A stretch of DNA of 64,000 bases from Dehalococcoidia bacterium (GCA_965222025.1 CBDCTI010000011.1:70990-134989); one strand, 5' to 3'. Positions 1,608 through 63,984 are shown, numbered from the stretch's first letter. Made by a program: numbers and translations. Notes: generated by a model not told the origin, from the sequence alone.

Positions 1608-2012
1608 TCAGCCGCCGGGGGAGGCGTGGTGGCCGATCATCTTCCAGCCGTCGTCGTGACGGGCGAAGAAGTTGGTGGCGTAGGTGGAGAAGTTGGAGGC
1701 GCGGCCCTGAACCACGCTGGTGATGACCTCGACGCAGGTGACGCAGCCGAACTCGCCCTGGGCGACCACGTTCAGGTAGCGGACGGTGAACTGCATGAGG
1801 TTGGCGTTATCGAAGATGCGGACCCAGCTTTCGCGGATGGTGTCCCAGCCGACGATGGGGGTCCAGCCTGGGTGGACGCACATGGCGCGTTCGGAGGTTT
1901 CCCAGACCTCGTCCATGCGCTCGATGCTCAGCTCGTTGAAGGCGTCGTAGAACCGCTGGTTGGCGGCCCTGATTTCCTCGACGATTTCGGGTTCTTCGTT
2001 GTACATGGCCAT
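1608..2012 (-). CDS. SnoaL-like/NTF2-family protein
   Basis: IRAANQRFYDAF...CVHPGW...GW..IRESW...TNFF.R.DDGWKMIGHHAS. Start moved to ATG 2012. Confidence 0.8.
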   Translation of the reverse strand: MAMYNEEPEIVEEIRAANQRFYDAFNELSIERMDEVWETSERAMCVHPGWTPIVGWDTIRESWVRIFDNANLMQFTVRYLNVVAQGEFGCVTCVEVITSVVQGRASNFSTYATNFFARHDDGWKMIGHHASPGG

Positions 2013-2020
2013 GAGGTTTG

Positions 2021-2734
2021 TTACGGCTCCCGGCCGGCGCGCACGGCCCAGTGCTCCCAGGCGCGGCCCATGGTGCGGAGCCCGAGCTGGCCCTCGGACA
2101 TGATGGCGACCTCTCCGGGAGACAGGTACTTGACGTTGCCCAGCTTGAGCGACTCCAGCAGCAGGCTGGCGTTGACCTGCAGGTAGATAGCGGCCATGAC
2201 GGCTTCTTTCAGGGCGGCGCCGACGACGACACAGCCGTGGCCGCGCATGAGGGCGACGCGGCGCGGGCCGAGGGTGGTGGCCAGGTCGCGGCCTTGGGGC
2301 ATGGTGGTAACCAGCAGGTTGGTATCGCCGAAGTTGTCCTGGATGTCCCAAGTGGGGATGTCGTCCCCGATGAGGGCGGCAAGGTGGAACATGGGCTTGA
2401 GAGGGACGCCGGTGACGCCGAAGGGCACGACAGGCTGTGCGTGGTTGTGTACCACGGCCATCACGTCGGGGCGGGCCTCGTAGACGCCGCCGTGGATGGG
2501 CCGCTCGGAATACATCTCGCGGCCCTGCTGGTCGATGGGTTCGCCCTCGAGGGTGAACTCCATGAGGTCGTTGCGCTCCACCAACTGAGGGGCGCGCGAG
2601 CGGGAAAGAAAGTACCGGCCGGGGTTCCCGGGGTGGCGGATGCTGACATGGCCGTAGGCGTCAACAACGTCCTCGCGAGCGAGGATGCGGTTGGCGGTGA
2701 CGAGATCTTCCAGCTGTTGTTCCGGGTCGGTCAT
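2021..2734 (-). CDS. Class II aldolase/adducin family protein
   Basis: DAYGHVSIRHP, SERPIHGGVYEARPDVMAVVHNH and LMRGHG metal-binding motifs. Confidence 0.85.
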   Translation of the reverse strand: MTDPEQQLEDLVTANRILAREDVVDAYGHVSIRHPGNPGRYFLSRSRAPQLVERNDLMEFTLEGEPIDQQGREMYSERPIHGGVYEARPDVMAVVHNHAQPVVPFGVTGVPLKPMFHLAALIGDDIPTWDIQDNFGDTNLLVTTMPQGRDLATTLGPRRVALMRGHGCVVVGAALKEAVMAAIYLQVNASLLLESLKLGNVKYLSPGEVAIMSEGQLGLRTMGRAWEHWAVRAGREP

Positions 2735-2771
2735 GGCTTGCCGTTCCGGAGCCTAATGGATGCTTCACGGT

Positions 2772-2800
2772 GTAGGGGCGGGTTTCAAACCCGCCCCTAC
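2772..2800. repeat. GTAG-type REP palindrome
   Basis: GTAGGGGCGGG-TTTCAAA-CCCGCCCCTAC, perfect 11-bp arms. Confidence 0.75.
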
Positions 2801-2815
2801 GGATTCGCGGTTGCC

Positions 2816-2881
2816 GTCATTCTTAGCGCTGCGAAGCCTCGTTCATCCAGGGATGAGAATCTTCGCTCTCCTCAGAATGAC
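2816..2881. repeat. GTCATTCT...AGAATGAC REP-like element
   Basis: Terminal inverted repeat with internal GCGAAG/CTTCGC. Relics of the same family near 1417-1440 and 10020-10047. Confidence 0.6.
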
Positions 2882-2896
2882 ATTCTCGGCCGTCAC

Positions 2897-3517
2897 CTAG
2901 TGGGTAGGGGAGAAGGAGGCCGGCACCATGATCTTGTTTTCCTGGCTCTGGAGGAACTCGCGGGTGGGCGGCGGCCAGTGGGGCGACTTCACGGCCTCTT
3001 CGCGGACGCGGTTGCGCTCGTCGAGGTCCTTGTAGGGCCAGATGTGAACCCACTTGTTCAGCCCGCCCAGCTCGGTGAACCAGGCAGCGGCCAGCGGCGA
3101 ATACTCTTCGTGGTGGGGCACGGCGGCCTCCCAACGCTTGATCACCTCGCCCATGGAGCCGGTCTTGTAGGTGTAGGAGCGCATCTCGTAGATGTTGCCC
3201 ATTTCCTGGTTGTCACCCAAGGGGCGCATGAAGGGAGCGGGGATGAAAATCTCCGATTCCATGTTGACGTACATCTCGGGGTCGTTGGCGGGCGGCCAGT
3301 TGGGGTCCTGGGCGGCCTCGGCGCGGATGCGGGTGCGCTCGTCCATGCTCTCGTAGGGCCAGACATGGATGACCTGGTTGAGGGGGCCGATCTCGGTATG
3401 CCAGAAGGCGGCGAGGGGCGAATACTTCTGCCGGTGGGGCAGTGCCTTTCCGAAATTTTCCTCGAAAGTGGGCACGCTACCGGGTTTTAGGGTGTAGGTG
3501 CGGACCTCGTAGATCAT
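2897..3517 (-). CDS. NIPSNAP family protein (two tandem domains)
   Basis: IYEVRTYTLKPG and IYEMRSYTYKTG repeats, each with GxLN.x.HxWPY. ATG 3517 has an AGGAG RBS. Confidence 0.88.
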   Translation of the reverse strand: MIYEVRTYTLKPGSVPTFEENFGKALPHRQKYSPLAAFWHTEIGPLNQVIHVWPYESMDERTRIRAEAAQDPNWPPANDPEMYVNMESEIFIPAPFMRPLGDNQEMGNIYEMRSYTYKTGSMGEVIKRWEAAVPHHEEYSPLAAAWFTELGGLNKWVHIWPYKDLDERNRVREEAVKSPHWPPPTREFLQSQENKIMVPASFSPTH

Positions 3518-3867
3518 TGTGGCATTCTCCTGCTGGTTGGGGGTTAAATGACGGTAGGGTGAGTATCCGGGTAGTGTACCAAACGGGGGGATGGCGGGCA
3601 ATTTGTTCCCAAGTGGTCAGGAAGATTGCAAAGTCCCTGGGATGGTCGTCCCGAGCGGAGCGAAAGTCGCCTCATTGCAGGCGGGATGCTTAGCTTTGTT
3701 TCAAAATGACCGGCTACTGCTACCACTTCCCAATCGCCCTGGGGAATGGTTGCGTTTGCATTGTCAGGTGAACTTCAGCATATTACCGCAATTCGCGAGA
3801 GGGGAATGCGAGGAGCGTCTGGGATTGCGATTCAGCTGTCCAACTTTCATCCTCTAGGTGCTGGCCG

Positions 3868-4801: not shown

Positions 4802-5344
4802 TCAGAAGAAGTTGCTTACGTTCTTGGCCAGGAGGACGGTCTGGTCTAGGACTATCTTGCGATAGGCGACCCTGAGCTGGCCGCCCTCACGGCGAAGGAC
4901 GTCCTCGCGGCTGCCGACGTAGAAGTCCTCCTCGGTCTCGCCGCGGGTGCGGTACATTATGAAGTTGGAGTAGACCTTCAGCTCGGAGTCGCGCTGGCCG
5001 GACTCGACCTCGATGTTGGAGACGAAGTGGCGGGTGCGGGACGGAGGGTCCTCGGCCCAGGCCATGCCGGAATCCAGGCGGTTGATGCGGCGGGTGAGGG
5101 AGTCCTTGTCCTCGTCGAGGATGGCAAGCTCGTCTTCGCGGGAGAGCTCGCCATCCTCGTAGCGGGAGCCATCGAGGATGGATATGGCCTTGCTGTGGGC
5201 CGGGTAGCGGTTGGAGCGCAGGGGCGCCCAGTACTTGATGTCGTCGGTGAGCAAGTCCAGCCACTCGTGGAACTTACGGGAGTCCAGCAACCTGGCCTCG
5301 CGGTAGAGGAACTGCTCCACTTCGCGAATTGTGTCGTCACGCAT
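4802..5344 (-). CDS. Aromatic ring-hydroxylating dioxygenase beta subunit
   Basis: QFLYREARLLD...WLDLL.DD..YW, WAEDPPSRTRHFVSN, R.IVLDQTVL.AKN.S.FF. Confidence 0.92.
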   Translation of the reverse strand: MRDDTIREVEQFLYREARLLDSRKFHEWLDLLTDDIKYWAPLRSNRYPAHSKAISILDGSRYEDGELSREDELAILDEDKDSLTRRINRLDSGMAWAEDPPSRTRHFVSNIEVESGQRDSELKVYSNFIMYRTRGETEEDFYVGSREDVLRREGGQLRVAYRKIVLDQTVLLAKNVSNFF

Positions 5345-6120
5345 AGGTGAATCCTCCGGAAGCAGGGAATTCAGGCGCGGGGTTCACCAGCCTTACACTA
5401 ATATTACCAGTTGCTGCAAAGGTCAGGGCTCTGATCCCTAAAACCCGGTTGCTGTGTCAAAGCCTTCGAGATTTGCACTACGCTGGCCCAGGTCTGGCCG
5501 CGGCTGGTGAGCGCGCTGGGTGGTCTGCACTTCCGTCGCACGTTCGTGGCAACAACCGCGAACCGGCTCACTGGCAACCCCGAGTACACGTTCATCGTGG
5601 TTGGCGAGCGCATCAATGTCCTGGCTGAACTGAAAAACTCGCACTATGACTGACGCGGAGAATAGGGCAAGACCAATGCTGGTGGGCCTGACATATGGGG
5701 TTGTACAACTGTTGGAGCGGGTCAAGTCCCGCAAAACTTGCGTTTCAATCGTTCAGGTTCCCGGAGGAAGGCCAATCTCACTCCGGGGACCCCGCACAAT
5801 GTCGAAAAACGAGTCTTCAGCGATCAGGGAGAGATGGTTGTGCAGAATTTGTGAATGCGAAAAAAGGCAGTTATGAGAACATTGTGAGAAACCCGCTGGG
5901 AACATGTGTTGCATGTTTATTTCTCACACCAGTATTGGGTAGTATAGGGAACCCACCGCCTCCCAACGCTGCGTGTTCCGACTTGGGGGGCTCCACAGCC
6001 TCCCAGCTACCGGCAGACTGCCCGATTGAGACATTCCGCAAAATATAACCGGGGCAGTGTGAAATAGCGATGAAGTTGGGTGGGCTGTTCCACAAGACTT
6101 AAAGGATTACGGGCAAGACG

Positions 6121-6647
6121 ATGAGCCTTTTACAAGCGAATGCTGCATCCACAGAAGCCGAAGTGATAAGGAAAGAAAATGACGCACTGAAGGAACGGCT
6201 AGTCCGACTGAGCGAAGCCAGCATAAAAATATCCGAAAACCTGGATGCCGAATCCGTTCTTCAGGAAGTTATCAACAGCGCTTGAAATCTCACCGGCGCC
6301 CGGTACGGTGCGCTCCTGACTTTCCAGCCCCTGGGAGGTGTTTGCGACTTCTATACTAGTGGCCTTTCGCTGGAAGAACGCGAAAACATGACGCAATCTC
6401 CCTAGGGACTGGGCCTGCTGGGGCACATAAGCGAGAGCAAGGTTCCCGTCCGGCTGAAGGATATGGCAACCCACCCTGACTCCGTGGGTCTTCCGGAAAA
6501 CCATCCTCCCATGAAGACCTTTCTGGGGATGCCGGTCCGCCATCGCAACGAGCATGTGGGCAACCTTTATCTCACGGAAAAAGAAGGAGGGCAGGAGTTT
6601 ACACAGGAGGATGAAGACATAGCGGCAATGTTTGCTGCCCAGGCCGC
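6121..6647 (+). pseudogene. 5' (GAF) part of a fused sensor kinase-response regulator, two in-frame stops, cut by IS3
   Basis: Hand translation: LSEASIKISENLDAESVLQEVINSA*NLTGARYGAL...SP*GLGLLG...HPPMKTFLGMPVR...GNLYLTEKEGGQEFTQEDE, a GAF domain. TGA at 6283 and TAG at 6403. Confidence 0.8.
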
Positions 6648-6737
6648 TGAGGTGGACCCGGAAAACTGGACAGTTGGTTAAGTGGGAATCCTGCTCCTAA
6701 ACTACGGACAGCGACAGCTGTTGATGAGGAGCGGGAA

Positions 6738-7040
6738 ATGTCCACAGAGCGGAGAAAGCACAGCCCGGCCTTCAAGGCGAAAGTTGCACTGGAGGCAATG
6801 AAGGGCGAACAGACGGTGGCCGAGTTGGCCGCCCGGTTCGAGGTCCACCCCAACCAGATTCAGACTTGGAAGAAGGCCTTAGTGGATGGCGCGGCCGCTA
6901 TCTTCGGGCAAGGCAACGGGACCAATAAGGGCAAGGAGCAGAAGAACAAGAACAACGACGCCCTGGTGGCTCGCCTGTACCAGCAGATCGGCCAGCTCAA
7001 GGTGGAGCGGGATTTCTTGGAGGAAAGGTCCGGTCCATGA
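6738..7040 (+). CDS. IS3-family transposase OrfA (HTH)
   Basis: [10 protein letters not shown]...[25 protein letters not shown] overlap with OrfB. Confidence 0.9.
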
Positions 7041-7960
7041 CCCCAGCACAGCGGCGTGAGCTGACCGACCGGCAACATCGGCACCTGTCCATAGTGCGGC
7101 AATGCCAGCTGATGGGTGTCAGCCGCTCCAGCCTCTACTACCGTCCCAAGGGGACACCCCTGGGGGACCTGTCCCTGATGCAGGCCATGGACCGCCAGTA
7201 CCTGGAAACCCCTTTCTACGGTTCCAGGCGGATGAAGGCTTCGCTGGAGCGGCAGGGCATGCCGGTAAGCCGGAAGCGGGTGCAGCGGCTCATGAGACTG
7301 ATGGGACTGCGGGCTATCTACCGGCAGCCTCGCACCAGCCAACCAGCGGCGGGACGCTGGGTCTATCCCTACCTGCTGAGGGATCTGACGATCACCCGGG
7401 CGAACCAGGTGTGGGCGGCTGACATCACCTACCTGCCCATGGCCCGGGGATTCCTGTACCTGGTGGCCATCATGGACTGGCACAGCCGATACGTGGTGGC
7501 TTGGGGGTTGTCCAACACTCTGGAGACCGGCTTTTGTGCCGAGGCCCTGACCGAGGCCCTCGGCCAAGGAAGGCCCGACGTATTCAACACCGACCAGGGA
7601 AGCCAGTTCACCAGCCGCGAGTTCACGCAGATACTCCAGGATCACTCGGTGAAGATCAGCATGGATGGCAGGGGCAGGTACCAGGACAACATATTAGTCG
7701 AGCGGCTATGGAGGACAGTGAAGTACGAGGAGGTCTACCTGAAGGCCTACGCCAACGGCCTTGAGGCCCGCCGAGGGCTGCGAGAGTACTTCCGGTTCTA
7801 CAACCACCGGAGGCCGCATCAGGCCCTGGGCTACCGTACGCCGGCGGAGGTCTTCCACGGCGAGCCTGTAGAAGAGGAGCTGAAGGAAAGGAGGTGCCCG
7901 GACCAACGGGTCTTGGTATCATACGAAGGAGTGCAGGAGTCCCACTTAATTGTGGCTTAA
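7037..7960 (+). CDS. IS3-family transposase OrfB (DDE integrase)
   Basis: [36 protein letters not shown] and YN.RRPHQAL. Confidence 0.92.
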
Positions 7961-7991
7961 TCCTGTCCAACCAATGGGGTCCACCTCACGC

Positions 7992-9957
7992 CGCGGTAAT
8001 AATCAATTCCAGAAGATACGAGGAAGCACACCGGGCAAAGGTGGATCTGGAAACCCTGATGGACATCTCTCCCGTAGCAGTGTCCGTATTTGACGCTCGG
8101 ATAGGCGAGATGACTTATCTGAATCGGGAATCCCGGCGACTTATTGGTGTACTGGGAGTTCCGGATATGGACGTTGAAAACATATTCACATCCTTGAAAT
8201 TCACCAGATCTGACGGGAGAGAAATCGCTTTCGCAGACCTTCCCGGCACCAGGGCGCTTCAGACTGGCGAGACCGTGAGGGCCGAAGAAATTGTCATACA
8301 TCTACCCAACGGGAATACCGTAACCACCCTGGTAAATTGCGCTCCCCTCTTTTCCGAATCAGGGGACATAGAGTCGGTAATGTCCGTAATGCAGGACATG
8401 ACCCCACTGGAGGAGCTGGAAAGGCAAAAAGGACAATTCCTGGGGATGGTCAGTGGAGAGTTGAGAACGCCTGTGGCAACCATCAAGGGTTCAGCCGCTG
8501 CCCTCAAAACCATCGTCGATCCCCTGAACGCAAGTGAGTCAACGCATCTGTTGCGCATAATTGACCAGCAGGCAGACCTGATGCGCAGCCAGCTGAACAG
8601 CCTCATTGAGCTGACCCAGATTGAGTCGGGAACCCTATCGGTGGCTACCGAGTCTACGGATGTAGCGGGACTGATAGAACGGTCCTGCGGAGGGTATCTG
8701 AGAGACCACGCGGCCATAGCCATCCAATTGGATATCCCGGAGGGGCTGCCGAAAGTGCTGGCTGACAAGCACCGTATAAGCCAGGTATTGCACAACTTCC
8801 TCCGCCAGGCAGCGAAGCACTCTAACGAGTCGTCACCAGTCAAGGTGTCTGTTTCCATGGTCGATATCTACGTTGCCACCACGGTCTCCGTGAACGGGTC
8901 ATTTGCTCCTCCCGAGCAATCGTCTTCGCCGTTCAAAGAATCGGAAACGCCTCAGCTATTCAAGAAAATTTCACAGGCCCACAACAAAGCGGCTGAATCG
9001 TCCTCACAAGGCGAGGGGCTGGCGCTTGCCTTCTGCCGTGGGGTTGTAGAGGCTCATGGAGGCCGCCTCAGGACGGAAATGGATGAGCAGGAGGGCAGCC
9101 TGGCAGTGACCTTCACTCTCCCATCGGTAGATGATTTCGCCGAACCCGAACTTCAGAGTCCAAGCTCGGGGGAGACTGACAACGAACCGTTGTCGGCTCC
9201 GGCGGAGAAGGTTCAGGTCCTCTTGTCCATTGAGAACCCAAAGTTGCTGAGCACAGTTCGGAAGGTCTTGCTCAGCGCGGGCTACGGGGCCGTCGCGGCC
9301 ACGGGTCTGGACGAGGTTGAGCAACTTGCGCTGTCGGAAAAGGCGAAACTGATTCTCCTGGACATTGCCGGAAGAGAGGAAGAGTGCTTCCGCACCTTGC
9401 GACGTGCGGGAAGTTCTCTGAATCTCCCGGCAATCGTGCTGTGTGACAGGGACGACGAGGAATATGTGGTACGAGCATTCGACATGGGTGCGGACGGCTA
9501 CATGGTGAAACCATTTTCGGCTTCGGAACTGATCGCAAGGATTAAGGCAACCCTACGAAGGTTGAGCGGCGGCGTAGAATCCACCGGCAAAAATACGTTC
9601 CAGTCGGGCGACGTGCGAATTGATTTCCATGCACGGGCCATCACCGTGTCAGGACAGCCGGTGCAACTGACGGCGACGGAGTACAAACTGCTCACCGAGC
9701 TCTCCATTTCCGCCGGGAGGGTTCTCACCCAGGACATGTTGCTTCAGAGGGTCTGGGGACCGGAGTATCTGGGTGAGTCCCAGCTTTTGCGCTCGTACAT
9801 AAAGTCACTTCGCCAGAAGCTTGGTGACAGCGCGAGGAGCCCCTCGTACATCTTCACAGAGCACGGTATCGGTTACCGCATGGCAAAGGCTGACCCCGTA
9901 CCCGTGAGTTCGGAACACGAAGTTTCAAGGGCGGCCGGTCAGCACCGATACTGGTAG
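7992..9957 (+). pseudogene. 3' part: PAS - degenerate HisKA/HATPase - receiver - OmpR-type winged helix
   Basis: ORF 7894..9957 beyond the IS end. SGELRTP in place of SHELRTP, degenerate N/G boxes, GADGYMVKPF, LTATEYKLL...LLQRVWG...LRQKLGD...YI.TEHGIGYR. Confidence 0.78.
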
Positions 9958-9979
9958 AAGGCGTAGGTCTTGATGCCAG

Positions 9980-10003
9980 GCCCCCTCCCACGAGGGAGGG
10001 GGC
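9980..10003. terminator. Hairpin between convergent genes
   Basis: GCCCCCTCCC-ACGA-GGGAGGGGGC; no clear U-tract. Confidence 0.45.
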
Positions 10004-10078
10004 GTCAGGAGCGTGGGGTGAGATCCTCCGCTTCGCACAGGATCACAGGCCTGGCTCCGATCCTGCGAAGGCCGGCGG

Positions 10079-11347
10079 TCAGGTTGGCCAGGTCTGGGAG
10101 TCCATGAGCTGGCTCCAGCGGCCGTAGAAGGCGCGGTGGTTGTTCTCGCTGAGCCGGTAGTCGCTGGCCCACCCCAGAAGTTCCTCGTCGTAGCTGGCGT
10201 GTCCGAGGCCCATGCTAATGTTGAGCTGGTGTCGCCGGGAGACGACGCCGCGACCGGAGATGCTGCAGCCCTCCCAGTTGTCCATGTCGTCCTGCTCGAA
10301 GGCACCGGAGGGGCCGAAGGCGCGCAACGCCTGCAGGCGAAAGGCCTCCTTGACCTCCGGCGGCGCGGCTTTGTCGACATAGACGGCGGCCTGGATCTCG
10401 GTCCTGCCGGGGCCCTTGGGTTGCCAGACGCGGAAGGTGCGGGCCACGCTGCGCAACAGGGACAGGTTGGGGAAGATGGTGCCAGCGTGGGGGCGGATCA
10501 GCCGCAGCCGCTCGCCCATCCGCTTTGCGACCTCGTCGCGTATTGAATCCTCGTAGGCCAGAATTTCTGGCACGGCCGGGTCGGATGGATCGTCGGGGCC
10601 GAGGCCGACGATGCAGTGGCCGTTGCCAGGGGAGACCACGGCGCCCTCGCGGGAGGGTCGGGAGCGGAAATCGCCGCCGAATCCCGTGGTGACGGCCGAG
10701 AGGTGGCTCCAGCCGGTGTGGTAGCCGTCGCCGGCGAAGTTCTCTGCGGGCATCTTCCAGTTGGCGGGGATGATCCACTTGTGGATGCCGCCGATGACCT
10801 CAACACCGCCCTCACGCCGGTCGAAGAAGACGTCAAGATACCAGGTGGCGTCGCCGAGATAGTCCAAAAGGGGTGGTGCGTTGGGGTCGAAGGTGGCAAA
10901 GACCAGTCCCTTGTATGTATCGAGCTGGGCGACGGGGATGAGGCCCCACCTGGACTGGTCGAGCTCGCCGTAGTAGGCGTCCTGGAGGTTGGGGACTGCC
11001 TGAAGGGAGCCGTCGTTGTTGTAGGCCCAGCCGTGGTAGGCGCAGATGAAGGCGGCGGCGTTGCCGGAGTCGGCGCGGCAGAGTCGGTTGCCGCGGTGGC
11101 GGCAGATGTTCAGGAAGGCGCCGACCTTTCCGGAGCGGTCGCGCGCGACCAGCACGGGGTCCTCGCCCATGTAGGTGGTCAGGAAGTCGCCGGGTTTTGG
11201 GATCTGCGTCTCGTGGCAGAGGAAAAGCCAGCAGCGGGCGAAGATCTGCTCGAGTTCCTGCTGGTAGATTTCGTCGTCGCTGAAGATGCTGGGATTTATT
11301 ACGCCGTTCTCAGTGTCCACCAGGGAGGCCATTTGCATCGTTGCCAT
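10079..11347 (-). CDS. Rieske ring-hydroxylating oxygenase alpha subunit, paralogue 1
   Basis: CRHRG...CAYHGW Rieske motif, [14 protein letters not shown] and EQDD mononuclear-iron ligands, GGAGG RBS. Confidence 0.95.
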
Positions 11348-11389
11348 GGGGAACCTCCTCTCCGGTATCTGTGAAGAAAATTTCCGTAT

Positions 11390-11737
11390 CTACGGACGTA
11401 TCCGCACCCTGCTTTGGGTAACCGTGACGAGGTACCGGCTTTCTATTGCATGCGCGTTGTTCTCAACAAGATCGAGTACCGCTGCCACTTTGTCCTCAAC
11501 CGACATACGAACTAGCCGGATGATGCAAGGATGGGGAAGTCTACGCAGGAAAATAAGCTCTCCGAAGTCCTTGTCCTCGGTTATTATAGTCCGCTGTTCC
11601 TCTGTTGCCAGGGCCAGAATTTCTTCATCAGATGCCTTGGGGTTCCTTTCCACTACTGTCAGGACGTCATGTCCCTGCGATGTCAGTGTGGCCCTCATTT
11701 TGCGGGAGTCGGCGCACACGTCGAGCAGGAATTTCAT
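11390..11737 (-). CDS. DUF5615 PIN-like toxin (VapC45-like)
   Basis: MKFLLD...GHDV...ASDEEILALA..EQR.IITEDKDFGEL. Confidence 0.85.
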   Translation of the reverse strand: MKFLLDVCADSRKMRATLTSQGHDVLTVVERNPKASDEEILALATEEQRTIITEDKDFGELIFLRRLPHPCIIRLVRMSVEDKVAAVLDLVENNAHAIESRYLVTVTQSRVRIRP

Positions 11738-11743
11738 CGTTCT

Positions 11744-11992
11744 TTACCGGACGGGCACACGCTCGAAGACTGTTTCGCCCGCGACCGAGCGGTGAGCGTA
11801 GACGAGGCAGGCCAGGATGTCTTCGGGTTCAAGGACTGGATGCTCTTCGACAATGGTTTCCGGGGTATCGCCAGCGGCCAACATTGCCAGGATATGCTCC
11901 ACCGCTATGCGCATATCCCGAATGATTGGCTTGCCGCCGAAGACATCCGTCCGAACGGTAATTCGGCTTAGCAGCTCGTCGTTTGCTGTCAT
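11744..11992 (-). CDS. DUF433 antitoxin (VapB45-like)
   Basis: VFGGKPIIRDMRIAVEHIL..LA.G.T.E.I.EEHP.L..EDILACL.YA. Confidence 0.88.
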   Translation of the reverse strand: MTANDELLSRITVRTDVFGGKPIIRDMRIAVEHILAMLAAGDTPETIVEEHPVLEPEDILACLVYAHRSVAGETVFERVPVR

Positions 11993-12016
11993 TTACCTTT
12001 GTCTCCTCTCTTTTCG

Positions 12017-13285
12017 CTATAACTCCGCCCAGCTTCGGGCGGCCATGAGTTCGCTCCATCGCTGGTAGAAATGGCGCTGGTTGCTGTCGCTGTAGCGGTA
12101 CTCGCTGGTCATGGCCTCGTAGTCGCTGTTGTATGACTCGTGGCCGAGGCCCATCTGGTAGTTGAGCATCTGGCGGCGGGCCACCACGCCCCGACTGGTG
12201 AGGGTGCACTCCTGCCAGTTGTCCATGTCATCCTGTTCGAAGGTGCCGGAGGGGCTGAATCCCCAGATTGCGGTCTTGCGGATGGCCTCCTTGATCTCGG
12301 GCGGGGCGGCCTTGTCGGCGAAGGCCCACGACCAGATCTCGATGCTGTGGGGGCCCTTGGGATGCCAGACCCGGAAGGAGTGGGAGCTGCCCCGCAGGAA
12401 GGAGAAATTGGGGAAGGTGGTGCCCACCACCGGGTTCAGCTGTTTGGCACGGGGACCCAGCCTAGATTCCAGTTCGGCGCGGGTTTCCTCCTCGTAGTCC
12501 TTCATTATCTGCAACGGCGCGCCCGTCTGGTCGGCGGCCACGGTGATCATGCCGTGGCCGTTGCCCGGGGACACCGGCCCGCCGCCCGGCACGGAGGATG
12601 CAGTCACGCCGACGCTGAAGCCGGCCTTGATCGGCGACAGGTGGGACCACTGGACGTGGTAGGCGTCGCCTATGAAGTTCTCGGCCGGCATTTTCCAGTT
12701 GCAGGGCACCACCCACTTGTGGACGCCCCCCAGGACCTCGACGCCGCCCTCGCGGCGGTCGAAAAGGGTGTCCAGGTACCAGGCCATCGAGCCGAGGTAG
12801 TCCAGCAGCGGCGGTGCATTGGCGTCGAAGGTGGCGAAAATCAGCCCTTTGTATGTGTCAAGCTGGGCGACGGGGATGAGGCCCCATTTGGACTGGTCGA
12901 GCTCGTTGTAGTAGGCGTCCTGCAGGTTGGGCACGGCCTGGAGCTTGCCGTCGGCACCGTATCCCCAGCCGTGGTAGGCGCAGATGAAGGTGCCTGCGTT
13001 GCCGTCGTCGGCGCGGCACAGCCGGTTGCCCCGGTGGCGGCAGATGTTCAGGAAGGCGTTGACCTTGCCCTGCCGGTCCCGAGTTACGAGGATGGGGTCC
13101 TCGCCCATGTAGGTGGTGAAGAAGTCGCCGGGGTTGGGGATCTGGGTCTCGTGGCAGAGGAAGAGCCAGCAGCGGGCGAAGATCTGCTCCAGTTCTTCTT
13201 GGTAAATGGACTCCTCGCTGAAGATGCGGGGACTGATCAGGCCCCTATCGAGGTCTACCAGCGATGAAACGTTGGCCAGGACCAT
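12017..13285 (-). CDS. Rieske ring-hydroxylating oxygenase alpha subunit, paralogue 2
   Basis: Same motifs; [14 protein letters not shown]. Confidence 0.95.
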
Positions 13286-13340
13286 AATTCCGTACCTCCC
13301 TCTGCGTTCTCTTTCGCTTTACGATGATGCTTTTGGGGAA

Positions 13341-13351
13341 TTGTATTACAA
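13341..13351. promoter_or_regulatory. Palindrome TTGTATTACAA upstream of alpha paralogue 2
   Basis: An identical copy lies upstream of paralogue 3 at a similar distance (about 55 bp). Confidence 0.65.
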
Positions 13352-13382
13352 GCGGGCGGGAAAGGTAAGAAAGAGGGCCGGG

Positions 13383-13537
13383 AGGGTCATTCGATTATAG
13401 ATTACAAGCCTGGCCATTATTGCCAGTCCGTTCGTGGTTAGCTTGTCGAACCATGAACGAACGACCCTTCGACAAGCCCAGCACAGGCCCTTAGACAAGC
13501 TCAGGGCCAACGGGTTTGCCGATAATCGAATGACCCT
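13383..13537. mobile_element. MITE-like element with 16-bp terminal inverted repeats
   Basis: AGGGTCATTCGATTAT (13383-13398) and ATAATCGAATGACCCT (13522-13537); flanks GGCCGGG/GGCTGGG; internal CTTCGACAAGC-type repeats. Confidence 0.5.
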
Positions 13538-13835
13538 GGCTGGGAGGGCAGGAAGATTGCGTAGTCGCTGTCAATTCGTTGTCGATGAACGCGTAGAAGC
13601 TGCAACGGGTTCTGTACGTCTGCCCTATGACGAGCTCTGGACTACCGGTTTGTGTGCTCGAACGACTTTGCAACCGTCCTGCTGGGAGGGTAGGGCCTTC
13701 CGATTACTGAATACTCTTTTGCAATGGGAGTGTTGATGAGCCGTCCGCTCGTGGTTCGACGGGCTCACCATGAACCGACTGGCGTCGTGCCGGGAAAAAC
13801 AGAAAGACTCTGCCTGAACGGTTGGCCAGCAATTC

Positions 13836-13863
13836 AGAAGGGCGCACTGCTGTGCGCCCTTAC
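13836..13863. repeat. GTAG-type REP variant
   Basis: AAGGGCGCAC-TGCT-GTGCGCCCTT; relatives at 32667-32690 and 46637-46662. Confidence 0.6.
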
Positions 13864-13916
13864 TTCATTGGTTAGCCGCGGTTAACCGCTTTAATTCAGA
13901 GAATACGCTGATCTGG

Positions 13917-15185
13917 CTACAAGTCGGCCCAGCCGCTGGCGGCCATCATCTCGCTCCAGCGTTTGTAAAACTGGCGCTGGTTGCTGTCGCTGAACCTGAA
14001 CTCGCTGGTAAGGCCCTCATTCTCTTCGCTGTAGCTCTCGTGGCCGAGCCCCATCTGGTAGTTGAGCATCTGGCGGCGGGCGACGACGCCCCGGCTGGTG
14101 AGGGTGCAGTTCTGCCAGTTGTCCATGTCGTCCTGCTCCAGGGTGCCGGAGGGGCTGAAGCCGCGGATGGCGATGAGGCGGATGGCGTCCTTGACCTCGG
14201 GTGGCGCGGCTCTGTCGGCGAATACCCAGGACCAGATTTCGATGTGGTCGGGCCCCTTGGGATGCCAGACCCGAAAGCTCCGGGCGCTGGACTTTAGGAA
14301 GGAGAGATTGGGGAAGATGGTGCCCACCATGGGGTTCAGCGTCTCGGCTCGGGGGCCCAGGCGCTTTTCCACCTCGGCGCGGATCTCGATCTCGTAATTC
14401 TTGAGGGCTTCCATGGGCTCGCTGGTGGAACCGCTGACGGCGCACCAGATGCCATGGCCGTTGCCGGTGGAAACCTGGCCGCCACCAGCCACGGTCTGGA
14501 TGGTGGGCCCCACGCTGAATCCCTGGAGTATGGGAGACAGGTGGGACCAAGGAGTGTGGTAGGTGTCGCCTATGAAGTTGTCGGCCGGAAACTTCCAGTT
14601 GCAGGGCGCGACCCACTTGTGCACGCCGCCGATGACCTCGACGCCGCCATCGCGCCTGTCGAAGATGGCGTCGAGGTACCAGGTGATGGGTCCCAGGTAG
14701 TCCAGCAGCGGCGGGGCAGACGGGTCGAAGGTGGCGAAGATGAGACCCTTGTAGGTGTCGAGCTGGGCCACCGGGATGAGACCCCACTTGGACTGGTCGA
14801 GCTCGTTGTAGTAGGCGTCCTGGAGATTGGGCACGGCCTGGAGCTTGCCGTCGGCACCGTATCCCCAGCCGTGGTAGGCGCAGATGAAGGTGCCTGCGTT
14901 GCCGTCGTCGGCGCGACACAGCCGGTTGCCCCGGTGGCGGCAGATGTTCAGGAAGGCGTTGACCTTACCCTGACGGTCGCGGGTTACGAGAACGGGGTCC
15001 TCCCCCATGTAGGTGGTAAAGAAGTCCCCGGGGTTGGGAATCTGGGTCTCGTGGCAGAGGAAGAGCCAGCAGCGGGCGAAGATATGCTCCAGTTCTTCCT
15101 GGTAAATGGGTTCCTCGCTGAAGATGCGGGGGCTGATTAGGCCCCTGTCGGAGTCTACCAGCGAAGAGACGTCTGTAAGGACCAT
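13917..15185 (-). CDS. Rieske ring-hydroxylating oxygenase alpha subunit, paralogue 3
   Basis: Same motifs; [14 protein letters not shown]. Confidence 0.95.
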
Positions 15186-15237
15186 TGAGTCGGCCTCCGT
15201 GGGCGCGGGCGTTGAAATCAGGCGGTGCTCAGCAGGA

Positions 15238-15248
15238 TTGTATTACAA
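15238..15248. promoter_or_regulatory. Palindrome TTGTATTACAA upstream of alpha paralogue 3
   Basis: Identical to 13341-13351. Confidence 0.65.
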
Positions 15249-15307
15249 GCATACGGAAACCGTAACCATCAGGATGAGAGTCGTAAGCTAAAGGCAATGG
15301 ACCGGTG

Positions 15308-33716: not shown

Positions 33717-34147
33717 GTGGCAATGCAGCAGACACGGGGAATTTACCTGATCAGCGTGGTGGCGGAGACGCTGGACATGCATCCGCAGACGCTGCGCAAG
33801 TACGAGCGGGCGGGGTTCGTGGTGCCACTGCGCATGGGGGCGCTGCGGACCTACTCGGACGAGGACGTGGCGCGGCTACGGCTGATCAAGCACTTCGTGG
33901 ACGACATGGGACTGAACCTGTCGGGGGTGCAGCTGGCGCTGAAGATGACATCCGAGCTGCTGGCTCTCCGCCGGGAGGCGGCCACAGCCGGGGCCGCAGT
34001 GGAGCGAATAGACGAGATGCTGGCAACGGTGGGTGTGCGGGTGGTGCAGCGGCAGGAACCTGAGCCAGCCGAGGAGCCGGGGGACAGCTGGTTCCAAGTG
34101 AACGAGGGCGAGGCCGTGGAGTTTGGTACGGGGACGGGTGAAGCCTA

Positions 34148-34148
<1 letters not shown>
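33717..34148 (+). CDS. hspR: HspR-like MerR-family heat-shock repressor
   Basis: YLISVVAETLDMHPQTLRKYER.G.V.P.R.G..R.YSDEDV.RL..I......GLNL.GV. Confidence 0.82.
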
Positions 34149-35369
<1,221 letters not shown>

Positions 35370-35370
<1 letters not shown>

Positions 35371-36424
35371 TAGCTGCTTAGCTCTTCCAAAAGGGAATTC
35401 ACCGCTAACGTGAATGCTGGGTCAACAATTGCGGTGTCATTTTGGCCCTTATGTATGACACCAATAGACGTCAGCGAATTCAGTGCTTTGTCGACTGCCC
35501 GTCGCACGTCGAAGTCATCTAGTAGACTATCTTCTCTGGAACCGTCATCTCGGAATCGGGCACGAATAGACCAGCTCTCTGCAGCCTTTAGCCACGTTAT
35601 CCGTTTAGATTCAGTAACGGCTTCCAGTATCCCTTTGAGTCGTAAAACGCCCCCTGAACCGAACTGAGTTACCAAGAAAGTTCTTATTTCTTGGTCATCT
35701 ATTTCTCGAATTGCGAGGGTTCTTGAAATTCGATTTCTGCGAACGTGGGCATTCCACCTACTGACTAGATGTTCGATGCCAGCCAGCGAAAGGATAAAAA
35801 CTGTGAAGGCAATAAGGGAGCCAGGCAAGTAAATGAGTGTTCTAACGGCATGAGTTAGAAAATTTCCGGGAAATAGGCTAGAGAAAAAGCCTCCCTCTTG
35901 CTGGTCGGTTGATTGCGCCACTACGGGTATCTGATCAATTCCGGCGATCTTTCCGACCGCGAAGAAAGAGGGTATATCATCTTTCGAATGTAGCAGCAAA
36001 GCTTCCACGTCAAAATGCTTGCCCTTTTCAAAAATCACTTTTCGGAATGAAACGGTGTCTACGCCTACCACTTGAGGGTCTATCCTCGATGATAGGAATT
36101 CAGAATTAGAGTCAACGACTCTAGCATCAATCACCTCTCCGTCGAGGAATTTCATTCCCCAGGTGATTTCGCTGTCATAGTTGCCTTCCAGAATATTCAT
36201 CCCACCAGTGTTTGAAACTCTTACCGTTAACACCCTAAGGTTCAAATTCCGTTCTTGAACGTTCTGACCCCGAAATGATATGGCCAAATCTTCAACACGT
36301 CTGTGGACGTCAAGAACATTTGTATCGGCAATGGTCTCATAGGCTACTTTTGGTCCTGGCTCCCTATCGATCCAATACGAAATCACTATTCCGATGAGGG
36401 TTACGACTAGAGCTATGATGAAGG
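35370..36424 (-). pseudogene. Low-GC hypothetical membrane protein, main part; N-terminus (about 37995-38078) separated by IS1182
   Basis: Removing the IS and one CTAG gives the in-frame join ...SGRQIVL|AFIIALVVTLIGIVISYW...; second hydrophobic segment near LIAFTVFILSLAG. Confidence 0.7.
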
Positions 36425-37994
36425 CTAGCAGCCCGTCCGAGAAACGGGGTTGGTGAGCCGTTGGGGGTATGATGGTACGGAGCATCAGACGATCGGAGCG
36501 GTCAATGAGCAAGACCTACCTTCCCTACGACCCGGACCAGCAGTTGCTGCTGCCGGCGGCCCTCCAGGAATGGCTGCCGCCGGAGCACTTGGCCTACTTC
36601 ATCTCCGACGTTGCGGACCAGTTGGACCTCTCGGACATCACCGCCCGCTACGAGCAGGAGAGGCGGGGCGGCCCGCCCTACCATCCCAGGATGATGGTGA
36701 AGGTGCTGCTCTACGGCTACTGCACCGGCGTGGCCTCCTCGAGGCGCATCGCCCAGCGGCTGCACGAGGACATCGCCTACCGGGTGCTGGCGGCGAACAA
36801 CACGCCGGACTTCCGCACCGTCTCCGACTTCCGAAAGGACCATCTGGAGGCGTTGGGGGAATTGTTCCTGCAGGTGCTGGAGTTGTGCCAGCAGGCAGGA
36901 CTGGTAAAGCTGGGGCACGTGGCCCTGGACGGGACCAAGGTGAGGGCCAATGCCTCAAAGCACAAGGCGATGAGCTACGGGCGGATGAAGGAGAAGGAAG
37001 CGCGGTTGCAGGCCGAGGTGGACGAGTTGCTCCGCAAGGCGCAGGAGGTGGACGAGGAGGAGGACCGCCGGTACGGGAAGGACAGGCGTGGGGATGAGTT
37101 GCCGGAGGAACTGGCCTTCCGGGAGGGACGGTTGCGGAAGATAAGGGAGGCCAAGGCGGCGCTGGAGGCCGAGGCCCTGGCGGATGCGGAGCAGGCTGAG
37201 TCCGAGGGACGCAATCATCTCGGGGTGCCTGATGACAAGGCGCAGCGGAACTTCACCGACCCGGACTCCCGGATCATGCCCGGCCCGGGAGGGAGGGACT
37301 TCCAGCAGTCCTACAACTGCCAGGCGGTGGTGGACAGCGAGCATCAGGTGATCGTGGCGGCCTGTGCCACCGATCAGCCCTCGGACAAGGATCAGGCCGT
37401 GAGCATGATTGAGGAGGCCATCCTGAACGTGGGCACAGTCCCAAAGGAAGTCTCCGCCGACGCCGGATACTACTCGGCCAAGGCGGTGGAGGAACTCTAC
37501 GCCCTGGGAGTGGACCCGTTCGTCGCGCCGGAGAGGACCCGCCACGGCTGGGTGCCGCCACCGGCGCCCCGTGGCCGCATACCGAAGGGGCTGTCAGCCA
37601 AGGACCGGATGCGGCGCAAGCTGCGGACGAAACGGGGCAGGGAACGCTACGCGCTTCGGATGGAGACGGTGGAACCGGTATTCGGGCAGATCAAGCAGGG
37701 CCGGGGCTTCCGGCAGTTCCTGCTGCGGGGTCTGGCTAAGGTGAACCGGGAGTGGCTGATCATCTGCGCCGGCCACAACCTGCTGAAGCTGTTCCGGTAT
37801 GGGGCCGGGATGTTCGTCAAGGCGAGGGGAAAAGGCGCCACTGGGAACGACAGGGAGACGCGCCGGTCCATGGGCAGTGGGATTTTCAAGCGACAATCCG
37901 CAGGTGCCTACCCGCACCCCGCCAGAACCGTTGTCGCAGGGTAGTCCCGGCTGACCGACACCGCCAGTCGGTCAATCCTCAGACGGGCTGCTAG
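36425..37994 (+). mobile_element. IS1182-family element
   Basis: Inverted ends CTAGCAGCCCGTC(C/T)GAG; CTAG present at both junctions. Confidence 0.88.
36505..37944 (+). CDS. IS1182-family transposase
   Basis: GGPPYHPRMMVKVLLYGY...SSRRI, PDFRT.SDFRK, ALDGTKVRANASK, NFTDPDSRIM, SADAGY, VEPVFGQIK. Confidence 0.92.
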   Translation: MSKTYLPYDPDQQLLLPAALQEWLPPEHLAYFISDVADQLDLSDITARYEQERRGGPPYHPRMMVKVLLYGYCTGVASSRRIAQRLHEDIAYRVLAANNTPDFRTVSDFRKDHLEALGELFLQVLELCQQAGLVKLGHVALDGTKVRANASKHKAMSYGRMKEKEARLQAEVDELLRKAQEVDEEEDRRYGKDRRGDELPEELAFREGRLRKIREAKAALEAEALADAEQAESEGRNHLGVPDDKAQRNFTDPDSRIMPGPGGRDFQQSYNCQAVVDSEHQVIVAACATDQPSDKDQAVSMIEEAILNVGTVPKEVSADAGYYSAKAVEELYALGVDPFVAPERTRHGWVPPPAPRGRIPKGLSAKDRMRRKLRTKRGRERYALRMETVEPVFGQIKQGRGFRQFLLRGLAKVNREWLIICAGHNLLKLFRYGAGMFVKARGKGATGNDRETRRSMGSGIFKRQSAGAYPHPARTVVAG

Positions 37995-38134: not shown

Positions 38135-39421
<1,287 letters not shown>

Positions 39422-46699: not shown

Positions 46700-47915
46700 C
46701 TACCCCGGTATATCGTCGTAGTAGTGTTCTTCGGATATGACGCGGCCCTCGCGGAAGGTCTCTATCTGCTCCTCGCTGTAGCCCAGTATCCCCGAGAGCA
46801 CCTCCTCGTTGTGCTCCCCTACCTGCGGCGTGCTCCCGACGTTCACCGGCGTCCGCGAGAAGTGCCAGTAGTCCCCGGACACCGCGATCTCACCCGCCAG
46901 GAAGTCCGGTACCTCCACCATGGCCCGCCGCTCCCACGGGTGCGGGTCCTCCGCCGCCTGCGGTATCGTGTTTACCGGCGCCGCCACCACGTCATGGTCC
47001 GTGAAATGGGCTATCGCCTGCTCCATAGTCCGGTCTGCCAGCAACTCCCTGGTGGCCGCGTTCACCAGCTCCGCGTTGGCCAGCCGCTCGTGGCGGGTGT
47101 TGAACCGCGGGTCCTCCAGCCACTCGGGTTTCCCCAGGGCGTTGCACACCCGGTGCCAGTGGTGCTGGTCCCCCGCCGATATCAGCACCCAGCCCTCCCG
47201 GCAGGGGTAGATCCCCGAGGGAGGCGCCGTGCTCTCCCCCCGCTTGGGCGGTATCTTGGTCCCGTGGTAGGCGGTTATCGGTATCTCGGTCATGGAGTAG
47301 CCCGTATCGGCCAGGCAGACGTCCATGGACTGCCCCTCCCCCGAACTCTCCCGCTCGTGGAGCGCCGCCAGGGTGCCGATGGCCGCGTGCAGCGCCGTGA
47401 TGCGGTCGATGATGGGCACCCCCGGTCCTGATGGGCGGCATGCCCTCCTCACCCGTGACCATGGTGATCCCCGACATGGTCTGGCCGATGGGGTCGTAGC
47501 CTATGTTGTCCTTGTAGGGCCCGAACTGCCCGTAGGCCGAGACATTCACCATGATGATGCGCGGGTTCAGCTCCTTCAGGCTCTCGTAGCCGAAGCCCAT
47601 CTTCTCGATGGTGCCGGGCCGGAAGTTCTGCACCACCACGTCCGAGACCTTGACCAGCTCCCGCAGCACCTCCTTCCCTTCTTCCTTCCTGAGGTCGATG
47701 GAGAGGGACTTCTTGCCCGAGTTGTACTGGACCCAGTAGGAGGACTGCTTTTTGACCCAGGGGCCGTGGTAGCGGGTCTCCTCGCCGCCCAGGCGTTCCA
47801 CCTTGATGACCTCGGCTCCCATGCGGGCCAGCACCTGGGCGCAGCGCGGCCCTGCCTGGTGGCGCCCCAGGTCGATCACTCTCACGTTCTCCAACGGGTG
47901 GTTCAGTCCTGCCAT
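46700..47915 (-). pseudogene. Family III (CaiB/BaiF) CoA-transferase with +1 frameshift
   Basis: VIDL...AGP.CA..LA.MGAEVIKVE, N.GKKS, D..GQ.MSG in one frame and PIIDRIT onward in another; C5 run at 47419-47423 has one extra base. Confidence 0.8.
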
Positions 47916-48122
47916 GTCCTTCTCCCTCTTCCGGCCTGCCTCCCTGCTGAATCCGGGCAAGCCTGCCGATCGTTCCTTTCCGGAATTCTACGGCCCGAAA
48001 TCCCTGACGGCAAGAAGTCCAAGACATGCGCGCTTTTCGTAATACTGCTGTAAGATTTCGGGATGTAACATCGCAATTCTCTCGCAGATTCGACGGTGAG
48101 AAAAAGGATTGGAGGAACAGCT

Positions 48123-51542: not shown

Positions 51543-51632
51543 GGCTTTACTGCTCCGAGTTTGAAATTCCGTCAATGATTGATTCACCCAGCCGGGGGGT
51601 CTGTAAAGTGGCTTCGACTGCCAGAAACCTCA

Positions 51633-55045: not shown

Positions 55046-55077
55046 TCTCCCTGTCCTGCCCCGTCACCGAGGTACTA

Positions 55078-56300
<1,223 letters not shown>

Positions 56301-56367
56301 TAGCGACAGGGATCTGGCGCGGTGGGTTTCTCGCCCACCGTGCCCCCGATTTACGGGAGGAGACATC

Positions 56368-60825: not shown

Positions 60826-63908
<3,083 letters not shown>

Positions 63909-63984
63909 CACGCAAAGAATTTCAAACCTACTTGAAAAGGCAGGATCCGGGCAGACAATCAGGTCGGCGCATTCTCTACAACAT

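Follow-up and report, generated by a model that had tools for sequence, protein, structure and literature searches.

Several alphas and one beta: a comparative reading of a Rieske dioxygenase locus in an uncultured Dehalococcoidia bacterium

How several catalytic alpha subunits of a ring-hydroxylating dioxygenase are provided with a structural beta subunit, when their locus holds a single beta gene, is the question raised by a 64,000-nucleotide stretch of DNA (hereafter the window) from an uncultured sponge/SAR202-type Dehalococcoidia bacterium (GCA_965222025.1, CBDCTI010000011.1:70990-134989; positions are counted from its first letter). A first reading, made from the sequence alone, had noticed three Rieske alpha genes between positions 10,079 and 15,185 and had proposed that they differ in their substrate pockets, share one beta and possibly assemble into mixed hexamers. 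The comparison reported here makes it probable, in our view, that the locus is a multi-alpha, single-beta oxygenase kit, in which alphas with distinct pockets and a common Rieske domain would be served by one beta. The sharing of this beta by alternative alphas is well supported by comparison, although it is not proven.

Three alpha genes and a beta gene

The genes concerned are the following, with the evidence for each in brackets:

10079-11347, minus strand: alpha gene a1, subtype A1, 422 amino acids (open reading frame, Pfam, clade)
12017-13285, minus strand: alpha gene a2, subtype A2, 422 amino acids (open reading frame, Pfam, clade)
13917-15185, minus strand: alpha gene a3, subtype A3, 422 amino acids (open reading frame, Pfam, structure match, clade)
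4802-5344, minus strand: beta (small, structural) subunit gene, 180 amino acids (PF00866, 150 bits; PRK10069; structure matches)

The three alpha open reading frames (ORFs) are as first described, each being exactly 1269 bp long (422 codons and a stop) and all lying head to tail on the minus strand, and the three catalytic-loop strings quoted for them are found verbatim in a1, a2, and a3. The Rieske and 2-His-1-Asp ligands are likewise invariant in the three genes: the Rieske residues C82/H84/C102/H105, the bridging D207, and the iron ligands H210/H215/D354 are 100% conserved in the three window genes and in all 78 copies examined. Each alpha contains the Rieske motif CxH...CxxH (PF00355, 69-70 bits) and the Ring_hydroxyl_A domain PF00848, with 71-73.5 bits against a cut-off of 24.9. 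At the protein level, a2 and a3 are 80% identical (82% in DNA), and a1 shares 62-65% of its amino acids with either of them. Two further window ORFs of 428 amino acids were considered as additional alphas and discarded, the one at 38135-39421 encoding an aminotransferase and the one at 50301-51587 an M20 peptidase.

Regarding the class of these enzymes, the 19 best solved-structure matches of the alphas (E <= 1e-75) are all alpha chains of alpha/beta-type ring dioxygenases, with HcaE (8k0a) at the top (E of about 1e-111 to 1e-115, and 3.6e-115 for a3) and with BphA1, TodC1, NarAa, and naphthalene dioxygenase (NDO) also present, and the iron-ligand motifs of a1, a2, and a3 align with those of 8k0a, 1uli, and 2gbw. 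Alpha-only oxygenases match the window alphas far lower, mainly via the Rieske domain (E of 1e-21 to 1e-27). The window alphas, which contain PF00848 and whose 19 best structures are of the alpha/beta type, do not have the features of the beta-less alpha3 class of the phthalate/KshA/CARDO/GbcA type. By these matches, a1, a2, and a3 are classed as paralogous catalytic subunits of an HcaE/BphA/NDO-class Rieske non-haem-iron dioxygenase.

The beta gene passes the NCBIfam subfamily PRK10069 (200 bits, for a cut-off of 145), and its product matches the beta chains of the same alpha3beta3 structure entries as the alphas, with a best E of 7e-39; all solved close relatives of the window alphas and beta are alpha3beta3 enzymes. 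The single beta announced by the sequence-only reading does exist, as the sole PF00866 gene in the window, but it lies outside the interval in which it had been placed, 4.7 kb downstream of a1. Between positions 10079 and 15185, no beta was found, the ORFs between the alphas being a putative toxin-antitoxin pair and the remainder repeats. Similarly, the tandem array stands as a series of three alphas, but it is interrupted by the toxin-antitoxin pair between a2 and a1 and by a repeat-bearing spacer of 631 bp between a3 and a2.

The known systems HcaE/HcaF (8k0a), BphA1A2 (1uli), TodC1C2 (3en1), NarAa (2b1x), and NDO (1o7g) have the same two-domain alpha, the same ligands, and a SnoaL-fold beta. 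HcaE ranks first among them and yet is not an ortholog, since in the NF042946 / NF042947 tests the window alphas reach 430-446 bits for an NCBIfam equivalog cut-off of 830, and the window beta 158 bits for an HcaF cut-off of 230. Besides, the window alphas are about 30 amino acids shorter than the HcaE-class structures and have short loops after the second iron histidine. Another difference from HcaE/BphA-type systems lies in the gene number, several alphas per beta being found here and one alpha/beta pair there.

Alpha and beta counts in related genomes

Related loci were collected by a back-translated scan of species-representative genomes, which gave 74 loci (numbered with the prefix L) onto which the window proteins were then mapped; they come mostly from metagenome-assembled genomes (MAGs) labelled Dehalococcoidia bacterium, many of them at chromosome level, and otherwise from sponge Chloroflexi bins, SAR202 MAGs, and a few alphaproteobacterial MAGs. 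Gene content and synteny are direct observations in this set. The conserved order consists of MutS2 and acVLRF1 genes pointing away from the array, followed in the opposite orientation by a DinB-like gene, the alphas, beta, a NIPSNAP gene, and a class II aldolase-like gene. In the 23 loci with a complete DinB-to-beta interval, intact alphas number one (four loci), two (eight), three (four), four (four), five (two), or six (one), and the number of betas is exactly one in 23 of 23. More distant SAR202/alphaproteobacterial MAGs have 2-5 alphas followed by one beta (three alphas in L048, L053, and L078, five in L063, two in L070-L072). L013, L028, L036, L077, L049, and L053 contain alphas with a frameshift or a truncation. 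The window beta is 87-95% identical to its orthologs in most syntenic loci, and 77% in the outlying L042.

Four loci without the A1 subtype bear on the partner of this beta. In L040, L027, L042, and L021, the nearest gene upstream of the orthologous beta is an alpha of the A2/A3 superclade, which adjoins this beta in L040, L027, and L021 and lies 3.6 kb from it in L042; in three of these loci it is the sole alpha (L040, with A2c only, L027, and L042). The betas concerned are 87-88% identical to the window beta in L040, L027, and L021, and 77% in L042. Because these A1-less loci keep an A2/A3-superclade alpha upstream of an orthologous beta, the window-type beta is, on comparative grounds, not a partner of A1 only.

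The genome-wide alpha:beta count that had been proposed as a check gives about seven PF00848 alphas for four betas in the host genome (4.63 Mb, 13 contigs). Identity to the window beta is only 39-47% for the three other betas, each of which lies directly downstream of an alpha of its own, so that dedicated betas elsewhere in the genome for the window alphas were considered and rejected. The claim that the alphas share one beta is thus supported by comparison, through the 23 complete loci, the A1-less loci, and the pairing of the other betas. A second host locus (C8:268430-274206) holds two alphas, 43% identical to those of the window, and one beta, with BphC-like extradiol dioxygenase and dehydrogenase-like genes between the two alphas; alphas outnumbering betas is hence a recurrent situation in this genome.

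The excess of alphas could also be explained if only the beta-proximal A1 formed an alpha3beta3 enzyme, the distal A2/A3-type alphas being beta-less alpha3 oxygenases. Such a beta-less function is assumed by Saw et al. (2020; PMC6946804) for the general alpha excess in SAR202, with 1-62 alphas counted for 1-3 betas per genome in group VII. At the locus, it would agree with the promoter-like sites borne by the distal alphas and never by A1 or beta, and with the hairpin and the 631-bp spacer that follow a3 (see below). Nevertheless, an A2/A3-superclade alpha stands immediately upstream of the orthologous beta in the four loci without A1, all three window alphas contain PF00848 and have alpha/beta-type enzymes as their 19 best structures, and the known beta-less oxygenases come far down the match list, mainly via the Rieske domain. 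With both the A1-less loci and the enzyme class speaking against it, this main rival, a beta-less role of the distal alphas, appears quite unlikely to us.

Catalytic and Rieske domains of the alpha subtypes

The subtype structure of the alphas was observed in a tree of 153 sequences followed by clade extraction, which distinguished at least seven subtypes in close relatives:

A1: 21 copies
A1': 2 copies
A2: 8 copies
A2b: 10 copies
A2c: 14 copies
A3: 14 copies
A3b: 9 copies

The order in the window is A3, A2, antitoxin, toxin, A1, an insertion, and beta. Subsets of subtypes and their order vary among genomes, A1 normally adjoining beta where it is present. When the window copies are compared to their orthologs, omega is 0.11 for A1 (20 orthologs), 0.10 for A2 (7 orthologs), 0.09 for A3 (the clade of a3, with 13 orthologs), and 0.11 for beta. 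Selection is thereby seen to act on each gene, these values indicating that A1, A2, A3, and beta are under purifying selection and that none of them is decaying. As tandem paralogs can be mis-assembled in MAGs, one may wonder whether the array is a product of faulty assembly or else a redundant duplication of very recent date, without functional meaning; yet its copies are just 62-80% identical, the same subtypes recur in over 20 genomes that were assembled independently, often to chromosome level, and each subtype is under purifying selection, which leaves this explanation extremely improbable.

In a tree of the catalytic domain, each subtype is monophyletic, and the six subtype label changes are the minimum possible, for a mean of 49 after shuffling. 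Subtype-specific columns, defined as those having at least three different consensus residues and conserved within subtypes, were sought among the six subtypes with at least eight members; 46 were found, none of them in the Rieske domain (the first 165 columns). They cluster at a1 positions 205/208/211/212, beside the iron ligands His210/His215, in the 218-237 loop, and in the 246-260 segment. At position 208, A1 has G, A2/A2b/A2c have A, and A3/A3b have T; the residues found are T, V, or F at 211, G, Q, P, or L at 212, H, V, I, or M at 287, and F or L at 350. Through the motif NF.GD.YH....H, position 208 corresponds to NDO Ala206 and position 344 to NDO Phe352, equivalences to NDO being claimed only where the iron-ligand motifs anchor them (Phe202, Ala206, Val209, Phe352, and Asp362). 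In NDO, selectivity has been attributed to Ala206, Phe202, Val260, His295, Leu307, and Phe352, and the bottleneck of the tunnel to Phe224, Leu227, Pro234, and Leu253 (PMC9939785, PMC5407579). The idea that the alphas have different substrate pockets is therefore supported by the 46 subtype columns around the iron site and the putative tunnel loops, with position 208 equivalent to Ala206 of NDO.

The Rieske domain shows the opposite pattern, as seen from DNA identities within and between genomes:

Different-subtype paralogs, same genome: Rieske 90.0%, catalytic 66.5%
Same-subtype orthologs, different genomes: Rieske 86.9%, catalytic 83.7%
Different subtypes, different genomes: Rieske 86.7%, catalytic 67.0%

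On the DNA tree of the Rieske domain, 33 subtype label changes are counted, for six on the DNA tree of the catalytic domain, and sequences cluster partly by genome, with 55 genome-label changes for a minimum of 61 in 200 shuffles. In the window, a candidate conversion tract was located in the Rieske domain:

12888-13066 (a2) and 14788-14966 (a3), minus strand: gene-conversion tract of 179 nt with 3 mismatches

Over the codons of this tract, a2 and a3 are 97-99% identical to each other, whereas their orthologs are only 84-89% identical to a2 or a3. Homogenisation restricted to one domain is thus observed, and the paralog identities, the label changes on the trees, and the 179-nt tract together indicate that gene conversion homogenises the Rieske domain among paralogs and that the catalytic domains are held apart.

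Such a pattern also brings back the combinatorial idea of the sequence-only reading, namely that mixed alpha trimers form on one beta3 scaffold and that the composition in subunits, beyond the choice of genes, sets the activity. The locus would then encode a constant/variable-region enzyme, any mixture of alphas co-assembling on one beta3, with electrons crossing between subtypes, from a Rieske centre in one to the iron site in another. In the structures of NDO and biphenyl dioxygenase, the Rieske domain touches the catalytic site of the neighbouring alpha, and here this domain has no subtype-specific position and is homogenised among paralogs, while a2 and a1 are probably co-transcribed. Domain-restricted conversion would keep the Rieske domain, as ferredoxin-docking surface and alpha-alpha electron-transfer interface, interchangeable, and selection would separate at least seven catalytic domains. 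Nevertheless, the separate promoters of the distal cassettes point to alphas that are expressed as alternatives and not all at once, and a shared ferredoxin partner explains the constant Rieske domain equally well, so that mixed trimers are a speculative reading that we hold to be unlikely. If true, they would amount to a combinatorial oxygenase, for which no precedent is described among Rieske enzymes, and would explain how SAR202-type bacteria with few betas use many HcaE-like alphas.

Transcription, displacement of beta, and meaning of the locus

The spacers of the array contain the following elements:

15237-15265, minus strand: promoter-like site upstream of a3 (TTACGG, 17 nt, TACAAT), containing TGTAATACAAT
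13340-13368, minus strand: promoter-like site upstream of a2 (TTACCT, 17 nt, TACAAT), containing TGTAATACAAT
13831-13860, minus strand: terminator-like GC hairpin GGGCGCAC-AGCA-GTGCGCCC with a T-rich tail, 57 nt past the a3 stop (tentative, missed by the consensus scan)
13687-13837: second dispersed repeat of the a3/a2 spacer, similar to miniature inverted-repeat transposable elements (MITE-like; blastn against the genome)
13375-13543: first MITE-like dispersed repeat of the a3/a2 spacer (blastn against the genome: many copies, 80-93% identity)
11744-11992, minus strand: DUF433 antitoxin-like gene (PF04255, E 2.9e-21), starting 24 nt past the a2 stop
11390-11737, minus strand: DUF5615 (PIN/Mut7-C-like) toxin-like gene (PF18480, E 2.5e-21)

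The two promoter-like sites sit 63-66 nt ahead of the ATG, and the exact 11-mer TGTAATACAAT, which is palindromic, is found in two places only in the whole genome, upstream of a2 and a3. In relatives, TTAyCT-17-TACAAT stands upstream of 41 of 55 A2/A3-type alphas, of none of the 21 A1 genes, and of none of the 61 betas. Such a distribution is in favour of a cassette promoter, which an operator may overlap. The view that the palindrome TGTAATACAAT is a GntR-type operator alone was discarded, since its constant spacing of 17 nt from the conserved TTAyCT box marks it as at least a -10 region. With the hairpin taken into account, the predicted transcription units would probably be a promoter with a3, ended by the hairpin, and then a promoter with a2, antitoxin, toxin, and a1; in the arrays of relatives, we infer that A1 and beta are read through from the preceding cassette.

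The DUF433 and DUF5615 genes are considered as a putative toxin-antitoxin pair by their domains, being small, on the same strand, 6 nt apart, and between a2 and a1. L013, L014, and L020 carry the pair at this same place in the array, and L028 has a remnant of the antitoxin. The 631-bp a3/a2 spacer is lengthened by two families of short MITE-like repeats, the first of which contains a perfect 16-nt inverted repeat (13383-13398 / 13522-13537). Alpha-alpha and alpha-beta spacers of relatives hold other palindromes, similar to repetitive extragenic palindromic elements, such as CCCTCTCCC...GGGAGAGGG. Cassettes without the TACAAT motif (some A3/A2b/A3b alphas, for instance in L015, L019, L020, L023, and L026) carry a conserved palindrome GATTGCCATGATT...AATCATGGCAATC, followed by AAATCACAGTTCAGACAAA, which may be mobile or may serve as another kind of regulatory element.

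The region between a1 and beta is occupied by an insertion, made of the following parts:

5345-10078: segment of 4.7 kb dividing a1 from beta (short spacing in relatives, Pfam, stops, copies of an insertion sequence, or IS)
6121-9957, plus strand: GAF-PAS-HisKA-HATPase-REC-OmpR single-chain sensor-kinase pseudogene (Pfam, in-frame stops, IS3 insertion)
About 6648-7988: IS3-family element within the sensor-kinase gene (orfA 6738-7040; orfB 7037-7960, with an rve domain)

The sensor-kinase gene is dead, with an in-frame TGA (6283) and an in-frame TAG (6403), both in its GAF part, and it is further interrupted by the IS3 element, an active IS with at least 24 genome copies at 98-99.9% identity. 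As only 36-182 nt separate the last alpha from beta in most relatives, the window beta has been cut off from the array by this insertion and by convergent transcription. A beta is present in the window, but 4.7 kb off across an opposite-strand gene, and in relatives beta adjoins the last alpha only. What the sequence-only reading had missed is that the window beta is no longer in the transcription unit of the array. Homologous sensor genes are present within a few kb of alpha/beta loci in L031 (best high-scoring segment pair 41% identical), L067, and L080, and a sensor of this GAF-PAS-HisKA type may be a regulator of the alpha/beta locus.

This displacement could mean that the system is being lost in the host genome and that the alphas are heading for decay. 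In line with it, a 4.7-kb insertion separates a1 from beta, the sensor-kinase gene is broken by two in-frame stops and by a recently inserted IS3 element (copies 99.85% identical elsewhere), and pseudogenised alphas are found in the relatives L013, L028, L036, and L077. On the other hand, the three alphas and beta are intact with all ligands present, the omega of the window copies is as low as in other genomes, and L042, L056, and L060 also have a beta that is displaced, by 2.4-4.4 kb, and still intact. In the light of these data, ongoing loss is considered very unlikely.

Several points weigh against the multi-alpha, single-beta reading. The window beta stands apart from the array, with convergent transcription between them and only a weak extended -10-like site upstream. 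With separate promoters for the distal alphas and an apparently monocistronic a3, beta would be supplied in trans and stoichiometric coupling would not be built in. That any of the alphas binds the window beta is a prediction from comparison. Besides, the subtype clades come from FastTree only, the pocket mapping is a sequence alignment to solved relatives, in which the 218-260 clusters are set on tunnel loops by alignment only, and the host genome is 92.9% complete, so that a further beta could be missing from the assembly. Finally, no dedicated ferredoxin or reductase is found among the main window ORFs, as had been stated from the start, Reductase_C has no match in the host genome, and this genome contains one NAD_binding_1 match and, as candidates, two small Rieske proteins.

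Most Fer2 matches in the genome correspond to open frames of about 160-180 amino acids, which we take to be CoxS-like small subunits. A small Rieske hit on contig C9 was rejected as a ferredoxin, being the N-terminus of an alpha-only Rieske oxygenase gene (C9:628844-631500) that is broken by an IS with a 491-amino-acid transposase; at 36469-37944, the window has an equally long ORF with DUF772/DDE transposase domains.

The locus is an old one of variable copy number, in which cassettes of a putative promoter and an alpha, 1-6 per genome and drawn from at least seven orthologous alpha subtypes, form a string closed by a single beta. Each alpha is a mosaic of a constant N-terminal Rieske region and a variable catalytic region, whose subtype residues line the iron site and, by alignment, the tunnel. 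According to the favoured multi-alpha, single-beta reading, one structural beta would assemble with whichever alpha is expressed, and one electron-donor set, encoded elsewhere, would dock on the constant Rieske domain, a common Rieske domain presumably implying a common donor. The outcome would be a set of isoenzymes with differing aromatic substrate ranges. Physical sharing of beta, substrate differences, and transcription units are thus what the comparison suggests rather than what it displays. In the host, the displaced beta would be expressed from its own promoter, or else the system would be impaired.

Downstream of beta, at 1608-3601, conserved genes encode tandem-NIPSNAP, class II aldolase-like, and SnoaL-like proteins, which may act on dioxygenase products. 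The best NCBIfam match of the aldolase-like protein is the 3,4-dihydroxyphthalate decarboxylase PhtC, well under the cut-off, and no cis-dihydrodiol dehydrogenase was found at the locus. Compared to the hca operon, the locus is devoid of the ferredoxin HcaC, the dehydrogenase HcaB, and the reductase HcaD, and has DinB-like, NIPSNAP, aldolase-like, and SnoaL-like neighbours instead. Elsewhere in the window, a 1230-bp element is present twice (34145-35374 and 55075-56304), with at least 23 genome copies at 99.8-100% identity; with a 377-amino-acid ORF that matches nothing in Pfam, it could be a mobile element not characterised so far. A CoA-transferase family III gene (46700-47960) is split into overlapping N-terminal (46992-47960) and C-terminal (46700-47452) halves, as a result of a frameshift, pseudogene formation, or a sequencing error. 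A complete 23S ribosomal RNA gene lies at 60826-63910 (Rfam LSU_rRNA_bacteria, 2663 bits).

Among known systems, those of sphingomonads, mycobacteria, and rhodococci contain several alpha/beta pairs sharing one ferredoxin and reductase. They resemble the present locus in having several oxygenases with common parts, but here beta itself appears shared and the alphas are tandem cassettes. In characterised multi-oxygenase bacteria, to our knowledge, sharing is limited to the electron-transfer proteins and no alpha lacks a beta of its own, and our literature searches gave no relevant described case of several alphas sharing one beta. Expansions of ring-hydroxylating dioxygenase (RHD) paralogs are reported for SAR202 in passages of Saw et al. 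(2020; PMC6946804) and Colatriano et al. (2018; PMC6123686), 20.5% of SAR202 RHDs being annotated as HcaE-like in the former (PMC6946804), and passages of Bayer et al. (2018; PMC6306507) describe aromatic-degradation genes in sponge Chloroflexi. The SAR202 expansions concern the same lineage and the same alpha excess as the window; in these passages, genes are counted and beta-less function is inferred. A syntenic array ending in one beta, its subtypes, domain-restricted concerted evolution, and a cassette promoter are undescribed in the literature passages searched. Taken together, the enzyme class and the SAR202 alpha expansion are known, while the gene organisation looks new.

Both SAR202 and sponge Chloroflexi are abundant in the sea, where a role in the oxidation of recalcitrant aromatic organic matter and of sponge natural products is attributed to them. 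With at least seven natural pocket variants on a near-identical Rieske domain, the locus would be useful for defining specificity residues and for enzyme engineering, and it offers a clean case of mosaic evolution in one gene family, concerted in one domain and divergent in the other. For the biology of these bacteria, it provides a testable alternative to the beta-less reading, in which one beta would serve several alphas of the alpha3beta3 class.

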